From the NCBI GenBank assembly GCA_041301185.1, contig JBFYSV010000347.1, forward strand, positions 1,697 through 65,696: a stretch of DNA of 64,000 nucleotides, in the 5' to 3' direction. Below are positions 51,282 to 58,724 of the stretch, piece after piece. Position numbers and translations under genes: made by a program. Numbering within the stretch: position 1 is the stretch's first letter; every line of letters starts with the position of its first letter. The notes under the pieces are model-generated. The model ran no database searches, was not told the origin of the DNA, and was given only the letters and a program-made list of their open reading frames with translations. The DNA comes from Anaerolineae bacterium. Lineage in GTDB: Bacteria > Chloroflexota > Anaerolineae > Anaerolineales > UBA4823.

Positions 51282-54050
51282 TTAGAGGTCCAAATCGATC
51301 GACACGCCTTTATGCTTGAGGGCGGCATGCGCTGCAGCCAGGCGGGCTATCGGTACCCGGAACGGGGAGCAGCTCACATAATTGTTGCCAATCATGTGGC
51401 AGAATTCGATTGAAGAAGGGTCGCCCCCGTGCTCACCACAAATTCCGACCTCCAGGTTAGCTCGAGTAGAACGCCCTTCTTTTACCGCAATATCCATCAA
51501 ACGCCCAACTCCTTCCCGGTCGATGGTCTGGAAGGGATTCTTGGGCAGGATGCCGTCTTCGACATACTTAAGCAGGAAATTCCGCTCGGCATCATCCCGG
51601 CTGTAGCCGTATGTCATCTGGGTCAGGTCATTGGTGCCGAAGGAGAAGAACTCAGCCAGGGTGGCGATCTCCGCAGCCGTGACAGCTGCCCGCGGGATTT
51701 CGATCATCGTACCAAACTTGTAGGGGAATTCCACGCCCTTCTCAGCCATAACCTGCTTGGCGATCGTCTCCAGGCTCGGCTGGATCACTTTCAGTTCGTT
51801 GACATGACCGGTCAGCGGGATCATAACCTCAGGCTTGGCATGAAAACCTTTCAATGTGGCATCTGCCGCCCCTTCGAATATCGCCCGGACCTGCATTTCG
51901 ACGATCTCCGGCATCACGATGCTCAAGCGAATTCCACGCAAACCCATCATTGGGTTGCTCTCATGGAGTGATTGGATATTGCGGAGAAGCTCCTCTTTTT
52001 CATCCAGTCCTTCCTTCTGGCCTTTGACCTGCATGGTGATCACTTCTTCGAGGGTGTCCTCGTAAGAGGGAAGGAACTCGTGCAACGGCGGATCGATCAA
52101 CCGGATGATTACCGGGTATCCATCCATGGCTGTGAACAGACCCTCGAAGTCAGAGCGCTGGTAAGGCAGCAATTCGGTTAGGGCAGATTTCCTCTCCGGG
52201 CTGGATTTAGCCAGGATCATTCGCTGTACGATGGGAAGACGTTCTGGCTCGAAGAACATATGCTCCGTGCGGCAGAGGCCGATGCCTACCGCGCCGTAAG
52301 AGCGTGCCCGGCGAGCGTCGGCGGGATAATCGGCGTTTGCCCATACCTGCAGTCCAGTCGTAGGCCAGCCAGCGGGGGCCTTGCGGATGCCAGGGGTAGC
52401 GCAAATATCATCTGCCCATTTCAACAGGGTGAGCAGGTCGGTTTGCTCTTCCAGGGTGGGTGAAACGGTAGAGATTTTACCCAGGAAGACCTCTCCGCTG
52501 GTGCCATCGACCGAGATCCACTCGCCTTCCTTGACCAGCGTGCCGTCTACGCTCATCTCGCGTTTTTCCAGGTCAATGCGGATGGAGGCAGCACCCACTA
52601 TACATGGGACACCGAACTGGCGGGCGACGACGGCAGCATGAGAGGTTGCGCCGCCCTCGCTGGTGAGGATACCTTTGGCAGCCAGCATACCGTGGACATC
52701 GTCTGGTTTGGTGAAGGGGCGCACCATGATCACATCTTGCCCTTCCTCTTTCGCCATCCGCTCGGCTGTATCGGCATCGAAGTACACCTGCCCCACTGCC
52801 GCGCCTGGAGATGCATTGACACCGGTGGCGTATAGCCGTCCCTCGTTGCGGGCGGTGGATTTCGCTTTGGTATCGAAATGGGGGTGGAGCAGGGTATCTA
52901 CCTGTTCAGGGGTGATCTTTAAGATCGCAGTTTCTTTGCTGATCAAACCTTCGTTGGCCATATCCACTGCAATTTTTACCGCGGCTTTCGCAGTGCGTTT
53001 TCCATCGCGGGTTTGCAGCATCCACAATTTTCCCTGCTCGACGGTGAACTCAACATCTTGCATTTCGTGATAATGGTCTTCCAGGTTTTGGCAAATCTCC
53101 AGGAATTGCTGGTATGCTTCTGGCATATCCTTGCCGAGATTCTCGATTTTCTCAGTATTGCGAATACCGGCAACCACGTCTTCGCCCTGGGCGTTGAGCA
53201 GGTAATCGCCGTACATTCTCTTCTCGCCATTGGCGGGATCACGGGTAAATGCCACACCAGTACCTGAGTTCCAGCCCATATTCCCAAAGACCATGGTTAC
53301 GATGTTGACCGCGGTGCCGAGGTCATGGGAGATACCGGCAGCATTGCGGTAATCGATTGCCCGCTTGCCATTCCAAGATTTGAAAACTGCTTCAGTCGCC
53401 AATCGCAGTTGCTCGAAGGGGTCCTGTGGGAAATCAAAACCTTTGTGTTGGTGAATGATCTGCTGGAATTTTTTAGTCAGGGTTTTCCAGTCCTGGGCAT
53501 CAAGATCTGTATCGGATTTGACGCCCTTTTGGTGTTTGTATTCTTCCAGTACATCCTCGAAAGCCTCATCCGGCATATCCAACACTACCGACCCAAACAT
53601 CTGCACCAGGCGGCGATAAGCATCATAGACGAAGCGCTCGTCACCAGTAAGCTTGACCATTGCTGCGGCAGTCTGGTCATTCAAGCCGATATTGAGCACG
53701 GTGTCCATCATTCCAGGCATGGAAAATTTCGCGCCAGAACGACAGGAAACTAGCAACGGGTTGTTTGTACCGCCGAACGTTTTGCCTGTCTGCTGTTCGA
53801 CGTGCTTTAAAGCATCTAGCTCTTGTTCCCACATGCCGGGCGGGAATTTTTCACCTTCTGCCAGGTAGGCGTTGCAGGCTTCTGTGGTTACGATGAAACC
53901 CGGTGGTACCGGAACCTTGATGCGGGTCATTTCTGCCAGATTCGCACCCTTGCCTCCCAGGAGCGAGCGCACATTATCCCATTTTCCGCCTACATACTTT
54001 TCAGCCTGGTCTAATTCGCTGAATAGATATACCCATTTGTTATTTGTCAT
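51282..54050 (-). CDS. ppdK: Pyruvate, phosphate dikinase
   Basis: 922 aa. GGKGANLAEM, phospho-His loop GGATSHAAVVARQFG, and C-terminal GICGEHGGDP. Confidence 0.95.
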   Translation of the reverse strand: MTNNKWVYLFSELDQAEKYVGGKWDNVRSLLGGKGANLAEMTRIKVPVPPGFIVTTEACNAYLAEGEKFPPGMWEQELDALKHVEQQTGKTFGGTNNPLLVSCRSGAKFSMPGMMDTVLNIGLNDQTAAAMVKLTGDERFVYDAYRRLVQMFGSVVLDMPDEAFEDVLEEYKHQKGVKSDTDLDAQDWKTLTKKFQQIIHQHKGFDFPQDPFEQLRLATEAVFKSWNGKRAIDYRNAAGISHDLGTAVNIVTMVFGNMGWNSGTGVAFTRDPANGEKRMYGDYLLNAQGEDVVAGIRNTEKIENLGKDMPEAYQQFLEICQNLEDHYHEMQDVEFTVEQGKLWMLQTRDGKRTAKAAVKIAVDMANEGLISKETAILKITPEQVDTLLHPHFDTKAKSTARNEGRLYATGVNASPGAAVGQVYFDADTAERMAKEEGQDVIMVRPFTKPDDVHGMLAAKGILTSEGGATSHAAVVARQFGVPCIVGAASIRIDLEKREMSVDGTLVKEGEWISVDGTSGEVFLGKISTVSPTLEEQTDLLTLLKWADDICATPGIRKAPAGWPTTGLQVWANADYPADARRARSYGAVGIGLCRTEHMFFEPERLPIVQRMILAKSSPERKSALTELLPYQRSDFEGLFTAMDGYPVIIRLIDPPLHEFLPSYEDTLEEVITMQVKGQKEGLDEKEELLRNIQSLHESNPMMGLRGIRLSIVMPEIVEMQVRAIFEGAADATLKGFHAKPEVMIPLTGHVNELKVIQPSLETIAKQVMAEKGVEFPYKFGTMIEIPRAAVTAAEIATLAEFFSFGTNDLTQMTYGYSRDDAERNFLLKYVEDGILPKNPFQTIDREGVGRLMDIAVKEGRSTRANLEVGICGEHGGDPSSIEFCHMIGNNYVSCSPFRVPIARLAAAHAALKHKGVSIDLDL

Positions 54051-54299
54051 GAGAATCCTCCAAAATTTTGTTGATAAACTTACGCAGAGGGTTGTTTTTC
54101 GTTTGCTGCGTAACTTCTAAATTTAAAGTTGGGTAAACCAACGTTATAGTTTACCACAATCTCTGAACCCTCTCTCGGGGGAAGCCACCTAGATTTGCAA
54201 TAGCCCGGTATAAGTAGAGGTATATGTCGAAATGCATTATTTATTGTAGATATTCATGTACAATATATAATGTATATATTAAGATATTTTAATTATATA

Positions 54300-54328
54300 T
54301 TGACTATTGCCTGATTTTATGGTAGGAT
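54300..54328 (+). promoter_or_regulatory. Candidate promoter of an orphan short transcription unit
   Basis: TTGACT (54300-54305), a 17-nt spacer, then TAGGAT (54323-54328), immediately downstream of a very AT-rich stretch. Confidence 0.4.
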
Positions 54329-54460
54329 AGTTGTGTCATGTAATTGAGAATGTATAAACCTGATGGGGGTGATTCAGGAAGCTCTCCTCTATAACTGTCC
54401 GGATTATTGCCATTATCGACTGCGTTATTGCGCCTCTTCGCTCTCCCCTCCCCTCCCCTG

Positions 54461-54501
54461 CCCCCGTCCTTTTGCGTGTTGAAAGGACGGGGGGCTCTTT
54501 T
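54461..54501 (+). terminator. Intrinsic terminator of the orphan unit
   Basis: Perfect 12-bp stem CCCCCGTCCTTT / AAAGGACGGGGG with a 9-nt loop, then GCTCTTTTG. A U-run is present only on the + strand. Confidence 0.65.
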
Positions 54502-54536
54502 GTAGAGCAAATTTCTAAAATTCCTTGCAAAATTGG

Positions 54537-54565
54537 TTGACAGCTTTTACTATCCCTTGTATAAT
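54537..54565 (+). promoter_or_regulatory. Consensus sigma-70-type promoter for rplU-rpmA
   Basis: TTGACA (54537-54542), a 17-nt spacer, then TATAAT (54560-54565). Confidence 0.6.
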
Positions 54566-54579
54566 TCCTTTTTGCCCTG

Positions 54580-54611
54580 CCCCGGCAGCATGTGTGCTGG
54601 GGGTTTATTTT
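54580..54611 (+). terminator. Leader hairpin + U-tract between the rplU promoter and the rplU start; candidate attenuator
   Basis: CCCC(GG)CAGCA-TGTG-TGCTGGGGG followed by TTTATTTT. Confidence 0.4.
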
Positions 54612-54699
54612 GTATCCCCAACTTCCCCTTACCTCGGCGGATATCGCAGTGGCAGACGAACGCGGAGAGTAAGGTGAAGTGAAGCTTGGAGGAAAGCTG

Positions 54700-55017
54700 A
54701 TGAAATACGCAATTGTTGAAGACGGTGGAAAACAGTACAAAGCCGTCGAAGGTAGTACGATCGATGTTGACCATTTTGCTTCTGAGATCGGTGAGCAACT
54801 TGATCTGGAAAGAGTGCTGCTCATTTCAGACGATGGCGGTGTAACTGTTGGCACCCCCCTGGTGCAAGGTGCGAAGATCCAGGCAACAGTGGTTGAACAG
54901 ATCAAAGGCGATAAGATCGTTGTATTCAAATACAAACCCAAGAAACGTTACCGCGTCAAAAGCGGTCACCGGCAGAAGTATACACGATTGAAGATTGACT
55001 CGATCGCTGTGGAATAG
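54700..55017 (+). CDS. rplU: 50S ribosomal protein L21
   Basis: [19 protein letters not shown]...[23 protein letters not shown] at 54688-54693; the ORF track starts at 54679. Confidence 0.95.
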
Positions 55018-55028
55018 GAGAAGGTGAG

Positions 55029-55307
55029 ATGGCGCATAAGAAAGGTGGCGGCTCCAGCCGCAATGGTCGTGATAGCCAGTCCCAACGTCTGGGTGTAAAG
55101 GTTTTTGGTGGTCAGCAGGTTATCTCTGGGAATATTCTTGTCCGGCAGCGTGGCACACGCATCAAACCGGGACGCAATGTTGGGCGCGGGAGAGATGACA
55201 CGTTGTTCGCGACGATGGATGGTGTTGTGTTCTACGAAACCATTCGTGATGATCGAAAACGGGTGAATGTGCTGACAATGGAAGAGTACACTGCCCTTAT
55301 TTCTTGA
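55029..55307 (+). CDS. rpmA: 50S ribosomal protein L27
   Basis: [29 protein letters not shown]...RQRGT. Confidence 0.95.
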
Positions 55308-55360
55308 GAGAATTCAGCACAACATGCTCTCGAGAAAATTTTGAAAGGTGATTATATATT

Positions 55361-55834
55361 ATGAAGTCAGATACCCACCCCACTTTTTATACCGATGCCA
55401 AAGTAATCTGTGCATGTGGTAATACCTGGACGACTGGCTCGACAAAGAAGGTTATCCATACCGACGTATGCTCACGTTGCCATCCCTTCTTCACCGGCGA
55501 GCAGCGTATTGTCGACTCCGAAGGACAGGTGGATCGCTTTTACCGCAAACTGCAAGCCCGCCAGCAGTATTTGGACGATCGCGAGGCTCGCGAGTCAGCT
55601 CGCACATCGCCAGAACGTCCAATCGCTGAACTGGAGCTAGGTCCCCGGGCTGTAGATGCGCTTGCTAAAGCCGGCATCACTCATGTCGGTCAGGTGCTGG
55701 AAAAACTTGCCCTTGGCGAGGACACCCTTCTATCGATCGATGGTTTTGGTCGTAAATCGCTTTCCGATCTAAAGAAACGTCTCCGCCAGTTTGGTTATGC
55801 CATGCCCGAAGCTGGTGAAGAGATCACAGTATAG
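55361..55834 (+). CDS. rpmE: 50S ribosomal protein L31 (Zn-ribbon type) with a C-terminal RpoA-alphaCTD-like helix-hairpin-helix domain
   Basis: aa 1-65 are a canonical L31 (HPTFY...CACG...CSRCHPFFTG...VDRFYRK). aa 87-146, IAELELGPRAVDALAKAGITHVGQVLE...LLSIDGFGRKSLSDLKKRL, match the alphaCTD pattern. Confidence 0.85.
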   Translation: MKSDTHPTFYTDAKVICACGNTWTTGSTKKVIHTDVCSRCHPFFTGEQRIVDSEGQVDRFYRKLQARQQYLDDREARESARTSPERPIAELELGPRAVDALAKAGITHVGQVLEKLALGEDTLLSIDGFGRKSLSDLKKRLRQFGYAMPEAGEEITV

Positions 55835-55872: not shown

Positions 55873-55911
55873 CCCCTCTCAGAGTGATTTTTTCTGAGAG
55901 GGGATTTTATT
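55873..55911 (+). terminator. Intrinsic terminator after rpmE
   Basis: CCCCTCTCAG / CTGAGAGGGG stem followed by ATTTTATT. Confidence 0.75.
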
Positions 55912-56020: not shown

Positions 56021-56593
56021 ATGAAACATCATACTGGCTCGATAGAGGTCATCACTGGCTCCATGTTTTGTGGCAAAACGGATGAGTTGATCCGCCGTCT
56101 GCGCCGAGCAACGATCGCCCGCCAGAAGGTCCAGGTATTTAAACCCGCAATCGATAACCGATATGCGGTCGAGAAAGTTACTTCCCATGCCGGTAGCGAG
56201 TTTGACGCCCTGCCCATTCGTAATGCACGGGAAATCCTGGACTACCTCAACAAGGATACGACCGTAATTGCCGTCGACGAATGCCAATTCTTTGATGCCG
56301 CGATTAATATTATTTGCCAGAAACTGGCCGACCAGGGGTTGCGTGTCATTGTGGCAGGATTGGATACAGACTTTAGAGGCGAGCCTTTCGGACCAATGCC
56401 GGCACTCATGGCTCAGGCAGAACGCGTTGACAAGCTGCATGCCATCTGCATGGTGTGTGGCGAGTCTGCTTCACGAACCCAGCGCCTGGTGGATGGGCGT
56501 CCCGCCCATTATGATGAGCCGGTAGTTGTTGTCGGGGCAGCAGAAATGTACGAGGCGCGCTGCCGTGAGCACCATGAAGTACCGAGGGATTAA
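56021..56593 (+). CDS. tdk: Thymidine kinase
   Basis: P-loop [21 protein letters not shown] and the Zn site C..CG...R. Confidence 0.95.
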
Positions 56594-56595
56594 TC

Positions 56596-57153
56596 ATGCA
56601 GGATTATCACGAATTCTTGTCCGAAATTTTGATCACCGAAGACCAGCTCAGGCAGCGAATTGCTGAGCTCGGCGCGGAGATCAGCCATGATTACCAGGGT
56701 AACGTGTTGCACCTGGTGTGTATTTTGCGGGGTGGGGTGCTCTTTCTGGGTGACCTGATGCGCCAGCTTACAGTACCCAATACGATCGATTTCATGGCTG
56801 TGTCCTCCTACGGGGTTGGAGCCAGACAATCTACCGGACAGGTCAGGATAAGCCTGGACTTAAAAGAGGATATTCGCGACCGGCATGTTTTATTGGTGGA
56901 AGACATCGTGGACAGCGGTTACACCATTGCTACGGTAATGGAATTTCTGGCTACCCGCCATCCAGCCAGCTTAAAGGTCTGTACCTTGCTGGATAAAGAG
57001 GAGCGCCGGGAAACATTTGTCCCTATCCATTACTGTGGTTTTAAGATCCCGGATAAGTTTGTGTTTGGTTATGGGTTGGATATCGACGAGTTATACCGGA
57101 ACCTGCCGTTTATTGGTGCCGTGGATCCCATCCGGTACCGGCCTCCCAAATAA
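56596..57153 (+). CDS. hpt: Hypoxanthine(-guanine) phosphoribosyltransferase
   Basis: PRPP motif VLLVEDIVDSGYT, plus FVFGYGLD. Confidence 0.9.
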   Translation: MQDYHEFLSEILITEDQLRQRIAELGAEISHDYQGNVLHLVCILRGGVLFLGDLMRQLTVPNTIDFMAVSSYGVGARQSTGQVRISLDLKEDIRDRHVLLVEDIVDSGYTIATVMEFLATRHPASLKVCTLLDKEERRETFVPIHYCGFKIPDKFVFGYGLDIDELYRNLPFIGAVDPIRYRPPK

Positions 57154-57215
57154 GCCGTAGAGCTGCACAGCGGCGAAATTGCGAAAGCCAATAATCACTC
57201 CTGGATATTGCTAAA

Positions 57216-58724
57216 GTGGATACTACTCTGAGCGATTCTCCAATCCATTCCTTACCCTGGATAAAGCAAATCCGCGCCAGGCTTGCGAGCACAGACTCGC
57301 TTCACCTGGTTGGTGGAGCGGTCCGTGACCTGTTGCTCAAACGTGAAATCCACGATATGGATTTTATCGTTCCCCAAGGCGCCTTACAATTCTCGCGCCG
57401 GGTTGCCAATCAGCTGGGAGGCGCGTTTTATCCATTGGATAAAGAACGTGAAACCGGACGTGTCATCCAGATGGATGATTCGGGTAAGAAGTGGCATTTG
57501 GATTTTGCCGTCTATCGTGGAACGGATCTGGATAGCGATTTGCGGGGGCGGGATTTTACCATCAATGCCATGGCGATCGATCTACACCAGCCTGGAAGCA
57601 TCTACGATCCCCTTGGTGGGGCTTTAGATTTGCACCGCAAGCAGCTGAGGACCTGTACGCCAGCCAGCCTGGAGGACGACCCTGTCCGAATTTTACGCGC
57701 AATCCGGTTTGCCGCGGCTTACCAGATGCGCATTGAGCCAGAGACCTTGAGGAACATGCAACGCCTGGTGAGTCGCCTGGGGGAAGTATCTCCTGAGCGT
57801 TTGCGGGATGAGTTCTTTCGGATTTTGGAAGACCCACACCCTGTAATTTGCTTGCGGGTGTTAGATTATATCGGCGGGCTGAGGGTCATGTTCCCGGAGT
57901 TGGAACTGTTGCGGGGATTGCCACAACCACCCCCACATACTTTGGATGGGTGGGCGCATACCCTGGAGGTAGTTTCCCGTCTTAGCCAGGTGCTCGGTGT
58001 GCTCGGTGTGCCTTATGACGAAGAGTCGGCTTCTAATCTAAACGCAGGTTTAATTGTTTTACAACTGGGCCGCTACCGAGACCAGATTAGTACACTGTTG
58101 CAATCGGAGCTCAGTGAGGGGCGAACGCAACGATCTTTGTTGTTTTTCGCTGCACTGTTCCATGATGTTGGCAAGTCACAGACTATACAGACTGATGAGA
58201 CAGACCGGATCAGATTCTTCGACCATGATAAAGCTGGCAGCTCGATCGTGTCTGACCGGGCGCGGGTGATGCACCTGAGCGGGGTGGAAATCGATCGTCT
58301 TAAATTGCTAGTGCAAACTCATATGCGACCGATATTATTGTCGAATGCTGGCTCTCACCCATCCCGCAAAGCGATCTATCGTTTCTTCCGTGACACGGGA
58401 GAAGCTGGTGTTGTGGTTTGCCTGCTATCCCTGGCAGACATGTGGGGTACGTATGGTTCCGCCCTGCCACAGACTGTCTGGCAAAATCATCTGGAGGTGG
58501 TGCGCTCTTTGCTTTGTGCCTTTTGGGAAAAACCGGAAGAAAGCGTGTCTCCTCCGGCGCTCATCAACGGGAATCAACTGATGGCAGAATTGAGGATTGA
58601 TCCGGGACCATTGGTAGGCGAATTGTTGGATGAGATTCGGGAAGCACAAGCCACAGGCCTGGTTGAGAGTCCGGCACAGGCGCTAGATCTGGCTCGTTCA
58701 CTGCTCGCTAAACAAAAGCTTTAA
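57216..58724 (+). CDS. cca: CCA-adding tRNA nucleotidyltransferase / poly(A) polymerase family with an HD domain
   Basis: GGAVRDLLL...DMDF head domain, RDFTINA, and HD motif FHDVGK. GTG start. Confidence 0.85.
   Translation: MDTTLSDSPIHSLPWIKQIRARLASTDSLHLVGGAVRDLLLKREIHDMDFIVPQGALQFSRRVANQLGGAFYPLDKERETGRVIQMDDSGKKWHLDFAVYRGTDLDSDLRGRDFTINAMAIDLHQPGSIYDPLGGALDLHRKQLRTCTPASLEDDPVRILRAIRFAAAYQMRIEPETLRNMQRLVSRLGEVSPERLRDEFFRILEDPHPVICLRVLDYIGGLRVMFPELELLRGLPQPPPHTLDGWAHTLEVVSRLSQVLGVLGVPYDEESASNLNAGLIVLQLGRYRDQISTLLQSELSEGRTQRSLLFFAALFHDVGKSQTIQTDETDRIRFFDHDKAGSSIVSDRARVMHLSGVEIDRLKLLVQTHMRPILLSNAGSHPSRKAIYRFFRDTGEAGVVVCLLSLADMWGTYGSALPQTVWQNHLEVVRSLLCAFWEKPEESVSPPALINGNQLMAELRIDPGPLVGELLDEIREAQATGLVESPAQALDLARSLLAKQKL

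Follow-up and report, generated by a model that had tools for sequence, protein, structure and literature searches.

What does a recruitment domain of RNA polymerase (RNAP) do on a ribosomal protein? The question is raised by one gene in a stretch of 64,000 nucleotides (nt) from an Anaerolineae bacterium (assembly GCA_041301185.1, contig JBFYSV010000347.1), the whole of which is called the window here. Its home contig, C158, belongs to an assembly of 4.17 Mb in 361 contigs that is 91.5% complete. The gene (rpmE; positions 55361 to 55834, + strand) is an uninterrupted open reading frame (ORF) of 157 amino acids (aa), in which ribosomal protein bL31 is followed by a charged spacer and by a domain of the type found at the C terminus of the RNAP alpha subunit (alpha-CTD). 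In the ribosome, bL31 makes up B1, the protein-protein bridge that joins the subunits at the mobile 30S head, and the alpha-CTD is the classic recruitment domain of RNAP. An earlier sequence-only reading, in which the frame was quoted exactly, had proposed that the extension links the ribosome to DNA, RNA, or a transcription factor.

Here, the two-module bL31 was established as real, under selection, and the sole L31 for this ribosome. As to its function, we tentatively favor a ribosome-tethered adaptor that would link the ribosome to the NusA/RNAP context, with a probability of a little under 40%. The structural part of the sequence-only reading (Zn-type L31, linker, alpha-CTD-type helix-hairpin-helix [HhH] part) held up, and the functional link is carried forward as a proposal. 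An alpha-CTD-type docking module on bL31 represents a previously undescribed ribosome variant in a large, environmentally abundant clade, the Anaerolineales and their relatives. Literature searches returned no paper on an L31-alpha-CTD fusion; sequence collections show the architecture as precomputed Pfam pairs, named merely "ribosomal protein L31." Even if the module does no more than bind rRNA, it would be a new case of domain recruitment into the bacterial ribosome. The fusion would also serve well as a phylogenetic marker.

Architecture, selection, and distribution of the fused L31

Family models and cysteine pattern place the fused protein in bL31 type A. Its N-terminal module (aa 1 to 64; positions 55361 to 55552, + strand) scored 93.1 bits with the Pfam model Ribosomal_L31 (PF01197), for which the cut-off is 27, and passed two NCBIfam L31 equivalogs (TIGR00105, 81.3 against 38.35; NF000612, 90.7 against 70). 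The type B model NF002462 gave 45.9, under its cut-off of 86. The Zn-ligand cysteines C17, C19, C37, and C40 (CxC ... CxxC), a pattern that marks type A as opposed to type B, were invariant in 81 relatives. In Foldseek, the L31 part of the predicted structure matched bL31 chains, and the identity to solved chains was 48 to 55%. With hidden Markov models (HMMs) above cut-off and the four cysteines in place, the view of aa 1 to 65 as a canonical Zn-type L31 was borne out. In genomes of family f65 (loci L115 to L117), L31 fusions without all four Zn cysteines were observed, with a type-B-like N-domain (VIVDGEVVMTVGST...WSGTHPFYTG) and the module kept.

The zinc-binding RpmE of type A has 70 aa in Escherichia coli and 71 aa in Thermus thermophilus. 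L31 chains in the Protein Data Bank (PDB) have 63 to 97 aa, with chloroplast forms of up to 144, and no PDB L31 chain or solved ribosome carries an alpha-CTD-type domain on L31. At 157 aa, the protein is unusually long, as had been claimed. It shares with canonical type A proteins the family-model match, the four Zn cysteines, the ribosomal-protein (r-protein) operon, and the single copy. However, the canonical protein ends in the segment that binds the 30S head, whereas here that segment runs on as a long helix into a domain of about 60 residues. Canonical bL31 binds uL5 on the central protuberance through its N-domain and uS13 on the 30S head through its C-terminal part (PMC10931766). The N-terminal part of the fused protein presumably sits at this usual place, on the 50S central protuberance with the C-terminal segment on the 30S head, in bridge B1. 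The fused gene was the sole PF01197 match in the genome, and this search found no second, short L31 paralogue that could serve the ribosome. Being the only copy, the fused L31 has to serve the ribosome, unless the cell does without L31.

The charged linker that had been described between the L31 and HhH parts was found as a spacer at aa 65 to 85 (positions 55553 to 55615, + strand). It forms the distal part of a predicted helix and ends in S83-P84-x-R-P, where S83 is at least 90% conserved. The segment from aa 62 to 85 measured 22 to 24 residues in 81/81 sequences, with a mean net charge of +1.8. An AlphaFold2 model, built from the alignment of these 81 sequences with a mean predicted local distance difference test (pLDDT) score of 76, showed the L31 beta-sheet, one long helix (aa 56 to 81), and a helical bundle. 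The main helices of the bundle (95 to 103, 109 to 118, 120 to 124, and 131 to 143) are preceded by a short helix (88 to 91).

The bundle corresponds to an alpha-CTD-type (HhH)2 module (aa 86 to 146; positions 55616 to 55798, + strand). With RNA_pol_A_CTD (PF03118; cut-off, 23.8 bits), aa 80 to 142 scored 42.3 bits, the isolated piece 43.4, and the six-frame genome search 44; eight NCBIfam rpoA models also aligned, to aa 62 to 152. A generic HhH domain in place of an alpha-CTD was rejected, since HHH_5 gave 18 to 20 bits, under its cut-off, and PF03118 was above. A PDB sequence search with aa 80 to 157 (E ≤ 10) gave 52 matches, all of them RNAP alpha subunits but for two very weak hits (E = 0.11 and 0.94), and the NusA acidic repeat (AR) was not among the 52. 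The bundle superposed on solved alpha-CTDs in Foldseek (9dvt_A, TM score of 0.90 and root mean square deviation [rmsd] of 0.9 Å over 62 residues; 7vpd_S, TM score of 0.90 and rmsd of 0.8 Å). The alpha-CTD pattern noticed earlier in aa 87 to 146 was therefore confirmed by profile and by fold. Behind the module lies an acidic C-terminal tail (aa 147 to 157; positions 55799 to 55834 with the stop codon, + strand), recognized by alignment and charge. Its consensus is [E/x]-L-P-E-A-A-E-E-I-x-V, and the sequence here is A-M-P-E-A-G-E-E-I-T-V. P149 is conserved at 90% or more, the mean charge is −3.1, and pLDDT falls below 50 for aa 152 to 157.

To compare functional surfaces, E. coli RpoA was aligned to the 81 sequences, and its numbering is used here. 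R96, G130, K132, and S133 of the module are taken by us as the equivalents of R265, G296, K298, and S299. These 265-determinant positions were kept to different degrees (R265, 79/81; G296, 81/81; K298, 64/81; S299, 59/81), and the position of E302 was D in 58/81. N268 and N294 make DNA-backbone contacts in the E. coli alpha-CTD; at their positions, D/E was found in 49/81 and G in 79/81, respectively. The K298 position was Ala or Ser in a Villigracilis-type subclade. The 261 and 287 determinants of the alpha-CTD contact sigma and CAP. The 261 position was not conserved (E 33, G 30, D 6), and the V287/E288 positions were variable. Thus, only the face that E. coli uses for UP-element DNA and for NusA-AR2 was retained, and that in part only. 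The C-terminal domain is an alpha-CTD family member by HMM and fold, without two of the three functional surfaces. Its last helix is basic (K138, K139, and R142, each at least 90% conserved). Together with G145 and P149, which are also near-invariant, these residues are further candidates for a functional surface. The module is net basic (+2 and pI 9.3 here; mean of +1.8, with a net charge above 0 in 78% of the 81 sequences).

The partly retained face bears directly on the possibility that the module binds double-stranded DNA as the alpha-CTD binds UP elements, and so ties ribosomes during translation to the nucleoid or to DNA under transcription. The fold, the minor-groove Arg (the R265 equivalent), and the G296, K298, and S299 equivalents agree with such a tether, as do the H1-like tails of L31s in sister lineages (see below), which are of a classic DNA-binding kind. 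It is nevertheless improbable: the backbone-contacting residues are replaced (N268 by D/E, N294 by G), one subclade has lost K298, the L31 modules of several lineages are net acidic, and no A/T-rich target or DNA context can be inferred.

Compared with the RNAP alpha-CTD, the module shares the fold, the above-cut-off Pfam score, the suspension by a linker from a body domain, and the four equivalents of the 265 determinant. In contrast, the RNAP domain is joined to the alpha N-terminal domain and the module to a ribosomal protein; the linker is a flexible tether in RNAP alpha and a helix of fixed length in the fused L31; and the module differs in its D/E at N268, its G at N294, its net basic charge, and its basic last helix.

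The extension was conserved in relatives (ranks of order, class, and family are those of GTDB). A full-length fusion was present in 37/41 Anaerolineales genomes and was split into two frames in 1/41 (G024). The remaining 3/41, which were 53 to 87% complete, had no L31 match at all. Every sampled Anaerolineales genome with an L31 gene therefore had the fused form, one of them split. Among the matches listed, 120/120 relatives had 157 to 163 aa and both Pfam domains (7,948 significant of 8,000 scored), and thousands of independent occurrences in metagenomes and genomes shared a length of 150 to 179 aa. Full-length fusions were also found in 80 named contigs, from Anaerolineales, Anaerolineaceae, Leptolinea, Bellilinea, Pelolinea, Anaerolinea, Villigracilis, and Aggregatilineaceae.

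Beyond Anaerolineales, the fusion occurred in 8 further families of the class. In a class sample of 151 genomes, L31 was matched in 147, and the match covered the module in 22, from 10 families; the other matches stopped at aa ~70 to 110. Other Chloroflexota classes gave no match at E ≤ 1e−30 in a phylum sample of 301 genomes, a threshold that more divergent fusions would escape. Only 25 of 1.84 billion representatives (50% identity clusters) scored ≤ 1e−30. The fusion family is abundant but compact.

Selection acts on all parts of the protein. The median ratios of nonsynonymous to synonymous divergence (dN/dS) were 0.05 for L31, 0.07 for the spacer, and 0.08 for the module (pairwise NG86; pairs of at least 80% amino acid identity); with dS near saturation, these values are rough, although dN was far below dS throughout. 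The spacer and module together had 15 positions conserved at 90% or more, plus the invariant G130. An annotation or assembly artefact, or a neutral appendage without function, is effectively refuted by conservation. Nothing speaks for it except the single relative with the split gene. Against it stand the thousands of occurrences of similar length, the low dN/dS of the module, the conserved positions, and the recurrent independent origins described below. A read-through product, against which the sequence-only reading had argued from the terminator, was likewise rejected, on conservation, dN/dS, and synteny.

Related modules on RpoA, NusA, and other L31 proteins

Six-frame and profile searches of the genome found three alpha-CTD-type modules, on RpoA, bL31, and NusA. 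RpoA (323 aa) keeps its own CTD, at 69 bits; a loss of the CTD from rpoA to L31, for which a check had been suggested, was thus rejected. NusA (679 aa) consists of NusA_N, S1, and KH domains, a helical linker of about 100 aa, and an alpha-CTD-like HhH module at aa 435 to 494, which scored 23.3 bits with PF03118 in hmmscan and 26.7 in the six-frame search. Behind the module come an extremely acidic spacer, about 150 aa long, and a basic end in which nine consecutive lysines precede YKKKRKRGGPGEWGDNWEI. Taken as a whole, the C-terminal arm beyond the KH domains carries a net charge of −49. The nusA gene lies outside the window (G000 contig C7; locus L003:943-2982, − strand).

This C-terminal plan of NusA (helical linker; module present, degenerate, or absent; acidic spacer; basic end motif) was common to 18/18 Anaerolineae lineages inspected. 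In most of them, the end motif reads K-run...QL[IV][YF]DEELGxVVxxRxRKxGRRxxxWxD, of which this genome has a divergent form, and the motif may be a docking peptide. Two metagenomic proteins, P0213 (186 aa, two tandem modules) and P0255 (246 aa, three), consisted of alpha-CTD-type modules only, with PF03118 scores of 113 and 180 bits, respectively. They may represent arrays of modules that stand free, or else pieces of NusA arms.

The three modules differ in charge, with net values of +2 for L31, −1 for RpoA, and −5 for NusA, and the same pattern was found in families f29 and f32. The L31 module is 46% identical to the CTD of its own RpoA and 31% identical to the module of its own NusA. In this lineage, it is therefore not of the NusA acidic-repeat type, being basic and closer to RpoA. 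A tree was built from the L31, NusA, and RpoA modules of 20 genomes, 12 L31 modules from named contigs, and E. coli RpoA; with 64 rows and 61 columns, its resolution is limited. The RpoA CTDs formed one clade (support, 99/94), and the main L31 type formed another (97/89), which held this genome, the named Anaerolineales contigs, and f29, f32, f46, f65, and f66. Fused to L31, placed outside the RpoA clade, and accompanied by an RpoA with its own CTD, the module is an alpha-CTD-type domain and not an RNAP subunit.

A different picture was obtained for genome G165, whose L31 module paired with the module of its own NusA (99/86). It is identical at 46/61 positions to the first NusA module and at 32/61 to its own RpoA, and its net charge is −6. 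Unlike the module of the present genome, it is of the NusA acidic type. The G165 NusA has two tandem alpha-CTD-like modules. At locus L110 (G165:C9:63500-68000), the rpmE fusion and nusA are divergent, on opposite strands about 0.8 kb apart. These comparisons indicate that the domain was recently copied from NusA to L31 or reached it by gene conversion. As the G165 L31 module is a near copy of a NusA module and the tree branches are supported, the L31 fusion must have arisen at least twice. Net-acidic L31 modules (−2 to −7) were also found in f39, f59, f65, f66, and f67. NusA is without a module in f39 and f67, whose L31 modules have net charges of −3 to −7.

Other Anaerolineae L31s, from nonfusion families (loci L089 to L108), are also extended at the C terminus. 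Some have short Arg-rich helices of the RRARARGD type. Others have tails of up to 237 aa (L31 of up to 303 aa) with acidic Pro/Val/Ala/Glu repeats of the PVAQVEE type and an AKKP histone-H1-like basic end. In addition, an L31 orthologue with a DUF4332 (HhH-type) domain was found on a JGI metagenome contig (P0166; L109:284-1006, + strand), in the same rpmA-rpmE-tdk synteny. This combination occurred at the L31 locus of 0 genomes in a 150-genome class sample and on this one metagenomic contig only. As compared across these sequences, the bL31 C terminus shows itself as an evolutionary hot spot for appendages in the class Anaerolineae.

A possible handle on the elongation complex

In the adaptor that we favor, a helical spacer of fixed length would run from the C-terminal segment of L31 and hold out the (HhH)2 module with its short acidic tail, as the model and the alignment suggest. 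Given the canonical topology of bL31, a helix of about 25 residues would carry the module outward from bridge B1, on its 30S-head side. There, it would dock to a polyanionic partner in a transcription-elongation context, for which the likeliest candidate is the acidic alpha-CTD/AR-like HhH module, together with the acidic spacer, on the long C-terminal arm of NusA. The leading ribosome would thereby gain a built-in handle on the NusA-RNAP elongation complex, analogous to the alpha-CTD-AR2 contact.

The coupling role is favored by the identity of the module as an alpha-CTD with selective retention of the AR2/UP-binding face; by the presence in the same cell of an acidic, AR-like NusA module, with complementary net charge (+2 against −5); and by the independent L31 fusion built from a NusA module, with the apparent interchange of carrier between NusA and L31. 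Schweimer and co-workers are said to have found in 2011 that alpha-CTD-AR2 binding goes through the UP-element site. In E. coli, NusA is freed from its autoinhibition when the alpha-CTD binds NusA-AR2 (PMC6614797). The present genome resembles this system in that an acidic HhH module follows the NusA KH domains and the cell has an alpha-CTD-type module that bears the AR2-binding face. In contrast to AR1/AR2, however, the NusA module here scores as alpha-CTD-like, is a single copy, and is followed by the long acidic spacer and the basic end motif. In contrast to the alpha-CTD-AR2 pair, the proposed partner module would sit on the ribosome.

A more specific form of the adaptor can be drawn, although it must be called doubtful. 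The L31 module and the NusA-arm module would form an HhH-HhH pair, and NusA-type acidic L31 modules would instead pair with the RNAP alpha-CTD, so that the 30S head would be wired to the elongation complex. In known factor-mediated coupling, NusG bridges RNAP and uS10, and NusA contacts the 30S subunit in expressome structures. The outcome proposed here would be the same, in that the leading ribosome would be physically joined to the elongation complex with a Nus factor involved. However, the adaptor would be part of the bridge-B1 ribosomal protein and not a free factor, and the contact would be of the HhH-HhH type. If true, transcription-translation coupling would have a third architecture, one encoded within a ribosomal protein, and this would explain the repeated placement of the module on L31 and its apparent seat on either NusA or L31.

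Co-occurrence also speaks for the adaptor, as an alignable NusA module was found in 18/21 fusion genomes with a NusA match and in ~11/~127 nonfusion genomes. Several observations weigh against the adaptor. NusA proteins with alpha-CTD-like modules, some of 60 to 80 bits, also occur in lineages with a short L31, so that the co-occurrence lacks specificity and has phylogeny as a confounder. L31 keeps its type-1 module in f46, where that of NusA is degenerate. In f65 and f66, the L31 and NusA modules are both acidic, which limits charge complementarity to the present lineage and its nearest relatives. The fixed length of the spacer would be explained no less well by a fixed ribosomal docking site than by a "fishing" adaptor, and the H1-like basic tails or DUF4332 on sister L31s point to generic nucleic acid binding. 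A strict co-occurrence of L31 fusion and NusA module was also considered; with a strong raw association, confounding by phylogeny, and exceptions both ways, it was not counted as proof.

RNA binding is a close rival to coupling. The module would then be a lineage-specific ribosomal expansion unrelated to transcription, which binds 16S, 23S, or 5S rRNA near the 30S head and central protuberance and reinforces B1, or which binds mRNA or tRNA. We regard this as possible, though on the unlikely side. Backbone binding is a generic property of HhH motifs, and the module, which is basic (pI 9.3), has R96, G130, K132, and S133 conserved, as well as a conserved and basic last helix (K138, K139, R142). 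The spacer of 22 to 24 residues is under purifying selection, as a defined docking geometry would produce, and sister lineages put other nucleic-acid-binding appendages on the same terminus (AKKP H1-like tails, the DUF4332 HhH domain). For comparison, the bL25/CTC-type r-proteins of T. thermophilus and Deinococcus radiodurans have extra C-terminal domains that pack on rRNA. They are alike in that a lineage-specific globular domain was added to a small r-protein of the central protuberance, and unlike in that the added domains are neither HhH nor alpha-CTD. RNA binding fits less well with Asp/Glu at the phosphate-contacting N268 position in 49/81 sequences, with Ala/Ser at K298 in the Villigracilis-type subclade, and with the net-acidic L31 modules of f39, f59, f65, f66, and f67. 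In addition, the G165 module was copied from an acidic NusA module of the protein-interaction type, and the long tails with acidic spacers in sister lineages are unlike fixed rRNA-binding elements.

With the alpha-CTD as a recruitment domain, a related module on NusA, and one L31 module copied from NusA, the long-standing question of how ribosome and RNAP are physically coupled is directly testable here. It concerns bacteria outside the E. coli, Bacillus, and Mycoplasma models, of which cultured relatives exist (Anaerolinea, Leptolinea, Bellilinea, and Pelolinea).

Operon setting and neighboring features

The fused gene is the third of the conserved cluster rplU-rpmA-rpmE-tdk-hpt-cca. Upstream of it lie rplU (bL21; positions 54679 to 55017, + strand), assigned by inspection of the sequence and synteny with no HMM run, and the ORF of rpmA (bL27; positions 55029 to 55307, + strand), assigned by synteny. 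By tblastn, rpmA was immediately upstream of the fusion gene in 80/80 related loci, and the order L21-L27-L31 fusion was kept in 79/80; the remaining locus begins at L27. A consensus scan, as a pattern match alone, gave a candidate sigma-70-type promoter for the rplU-rpmA-rpmE operon at positions 54537 to 54565 (+ strand; TTGACA-17-TATAAT, 12/12). A spacer of 53 nt precedes rpmE. In the sequence, a Shine-Dalgarno-like AAAGGTGA (positions 55344 to 55351, + strand) stands 9 nt upstream of the ATG. The intrinsic terminator that had been noted behind the gene was found by hairpin scan at positions 55873 to 55903 (+ strand), as a terminator-like hairpin of 12 pairs (7 G-C) followed by the T-run ATTTTATT.

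This setting bears on the idea that the extension serves free L31 and not the ribosome. In such an extraribosomal or regulatory role, L31 might, for instance, control its operon mRNA autogenously or moonlight in the manner of a transcription factor. For this role, there is a precedent: E. coli bL31 is an autogenous translational repressor, through its N-terminal segment and not its C terminus (PMC10931766, section 3.9). The long operon leader with its hairpins is also in agreement. The role is nevertheless quite improbable, more so than a DNA tether. The mapping of the E. coli repression to the N-terminal segment leaves the fused module aside, and the sole L31 copy is needed by the ribosome if L31 is used. 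A search of the operon leader and the gene-free stretch around it against Rfam gave no RNA leader or riboswitch match at E ≤ 0.1, and rpmE is third in the operon with only the short spacer before it.

Past the terminator, positions 56021 to 58724 of the window hold tdk (thymidine kinase), an hpt-like ORF, and an ORF like CCA-adding/poly(A) polymerase, in the same orientation. The tdk call comes from PF00265 in the orthologous locus L109, and the order of tdk, hpt-like, and CCA-adding genes was common to most of the 80 related loci. On the other side, a pyruvate-phosphate-dikinase-like ORF (positions 51282 to 54050, − strand) diverges from rplU, and the 628 bp between them (positions 54051 to 54678) are without genes. 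This stretch holds a strong terminator-like hairpin of 14 pairs on the + strand (positions 54461 to 54493), and the rplU leader holds a second hairpin with a T-run (positions 54580 to 54602). The gene-free stretch may harbor a small RNA that has escaped annotation, an r-protein leader or attenuator, or both.

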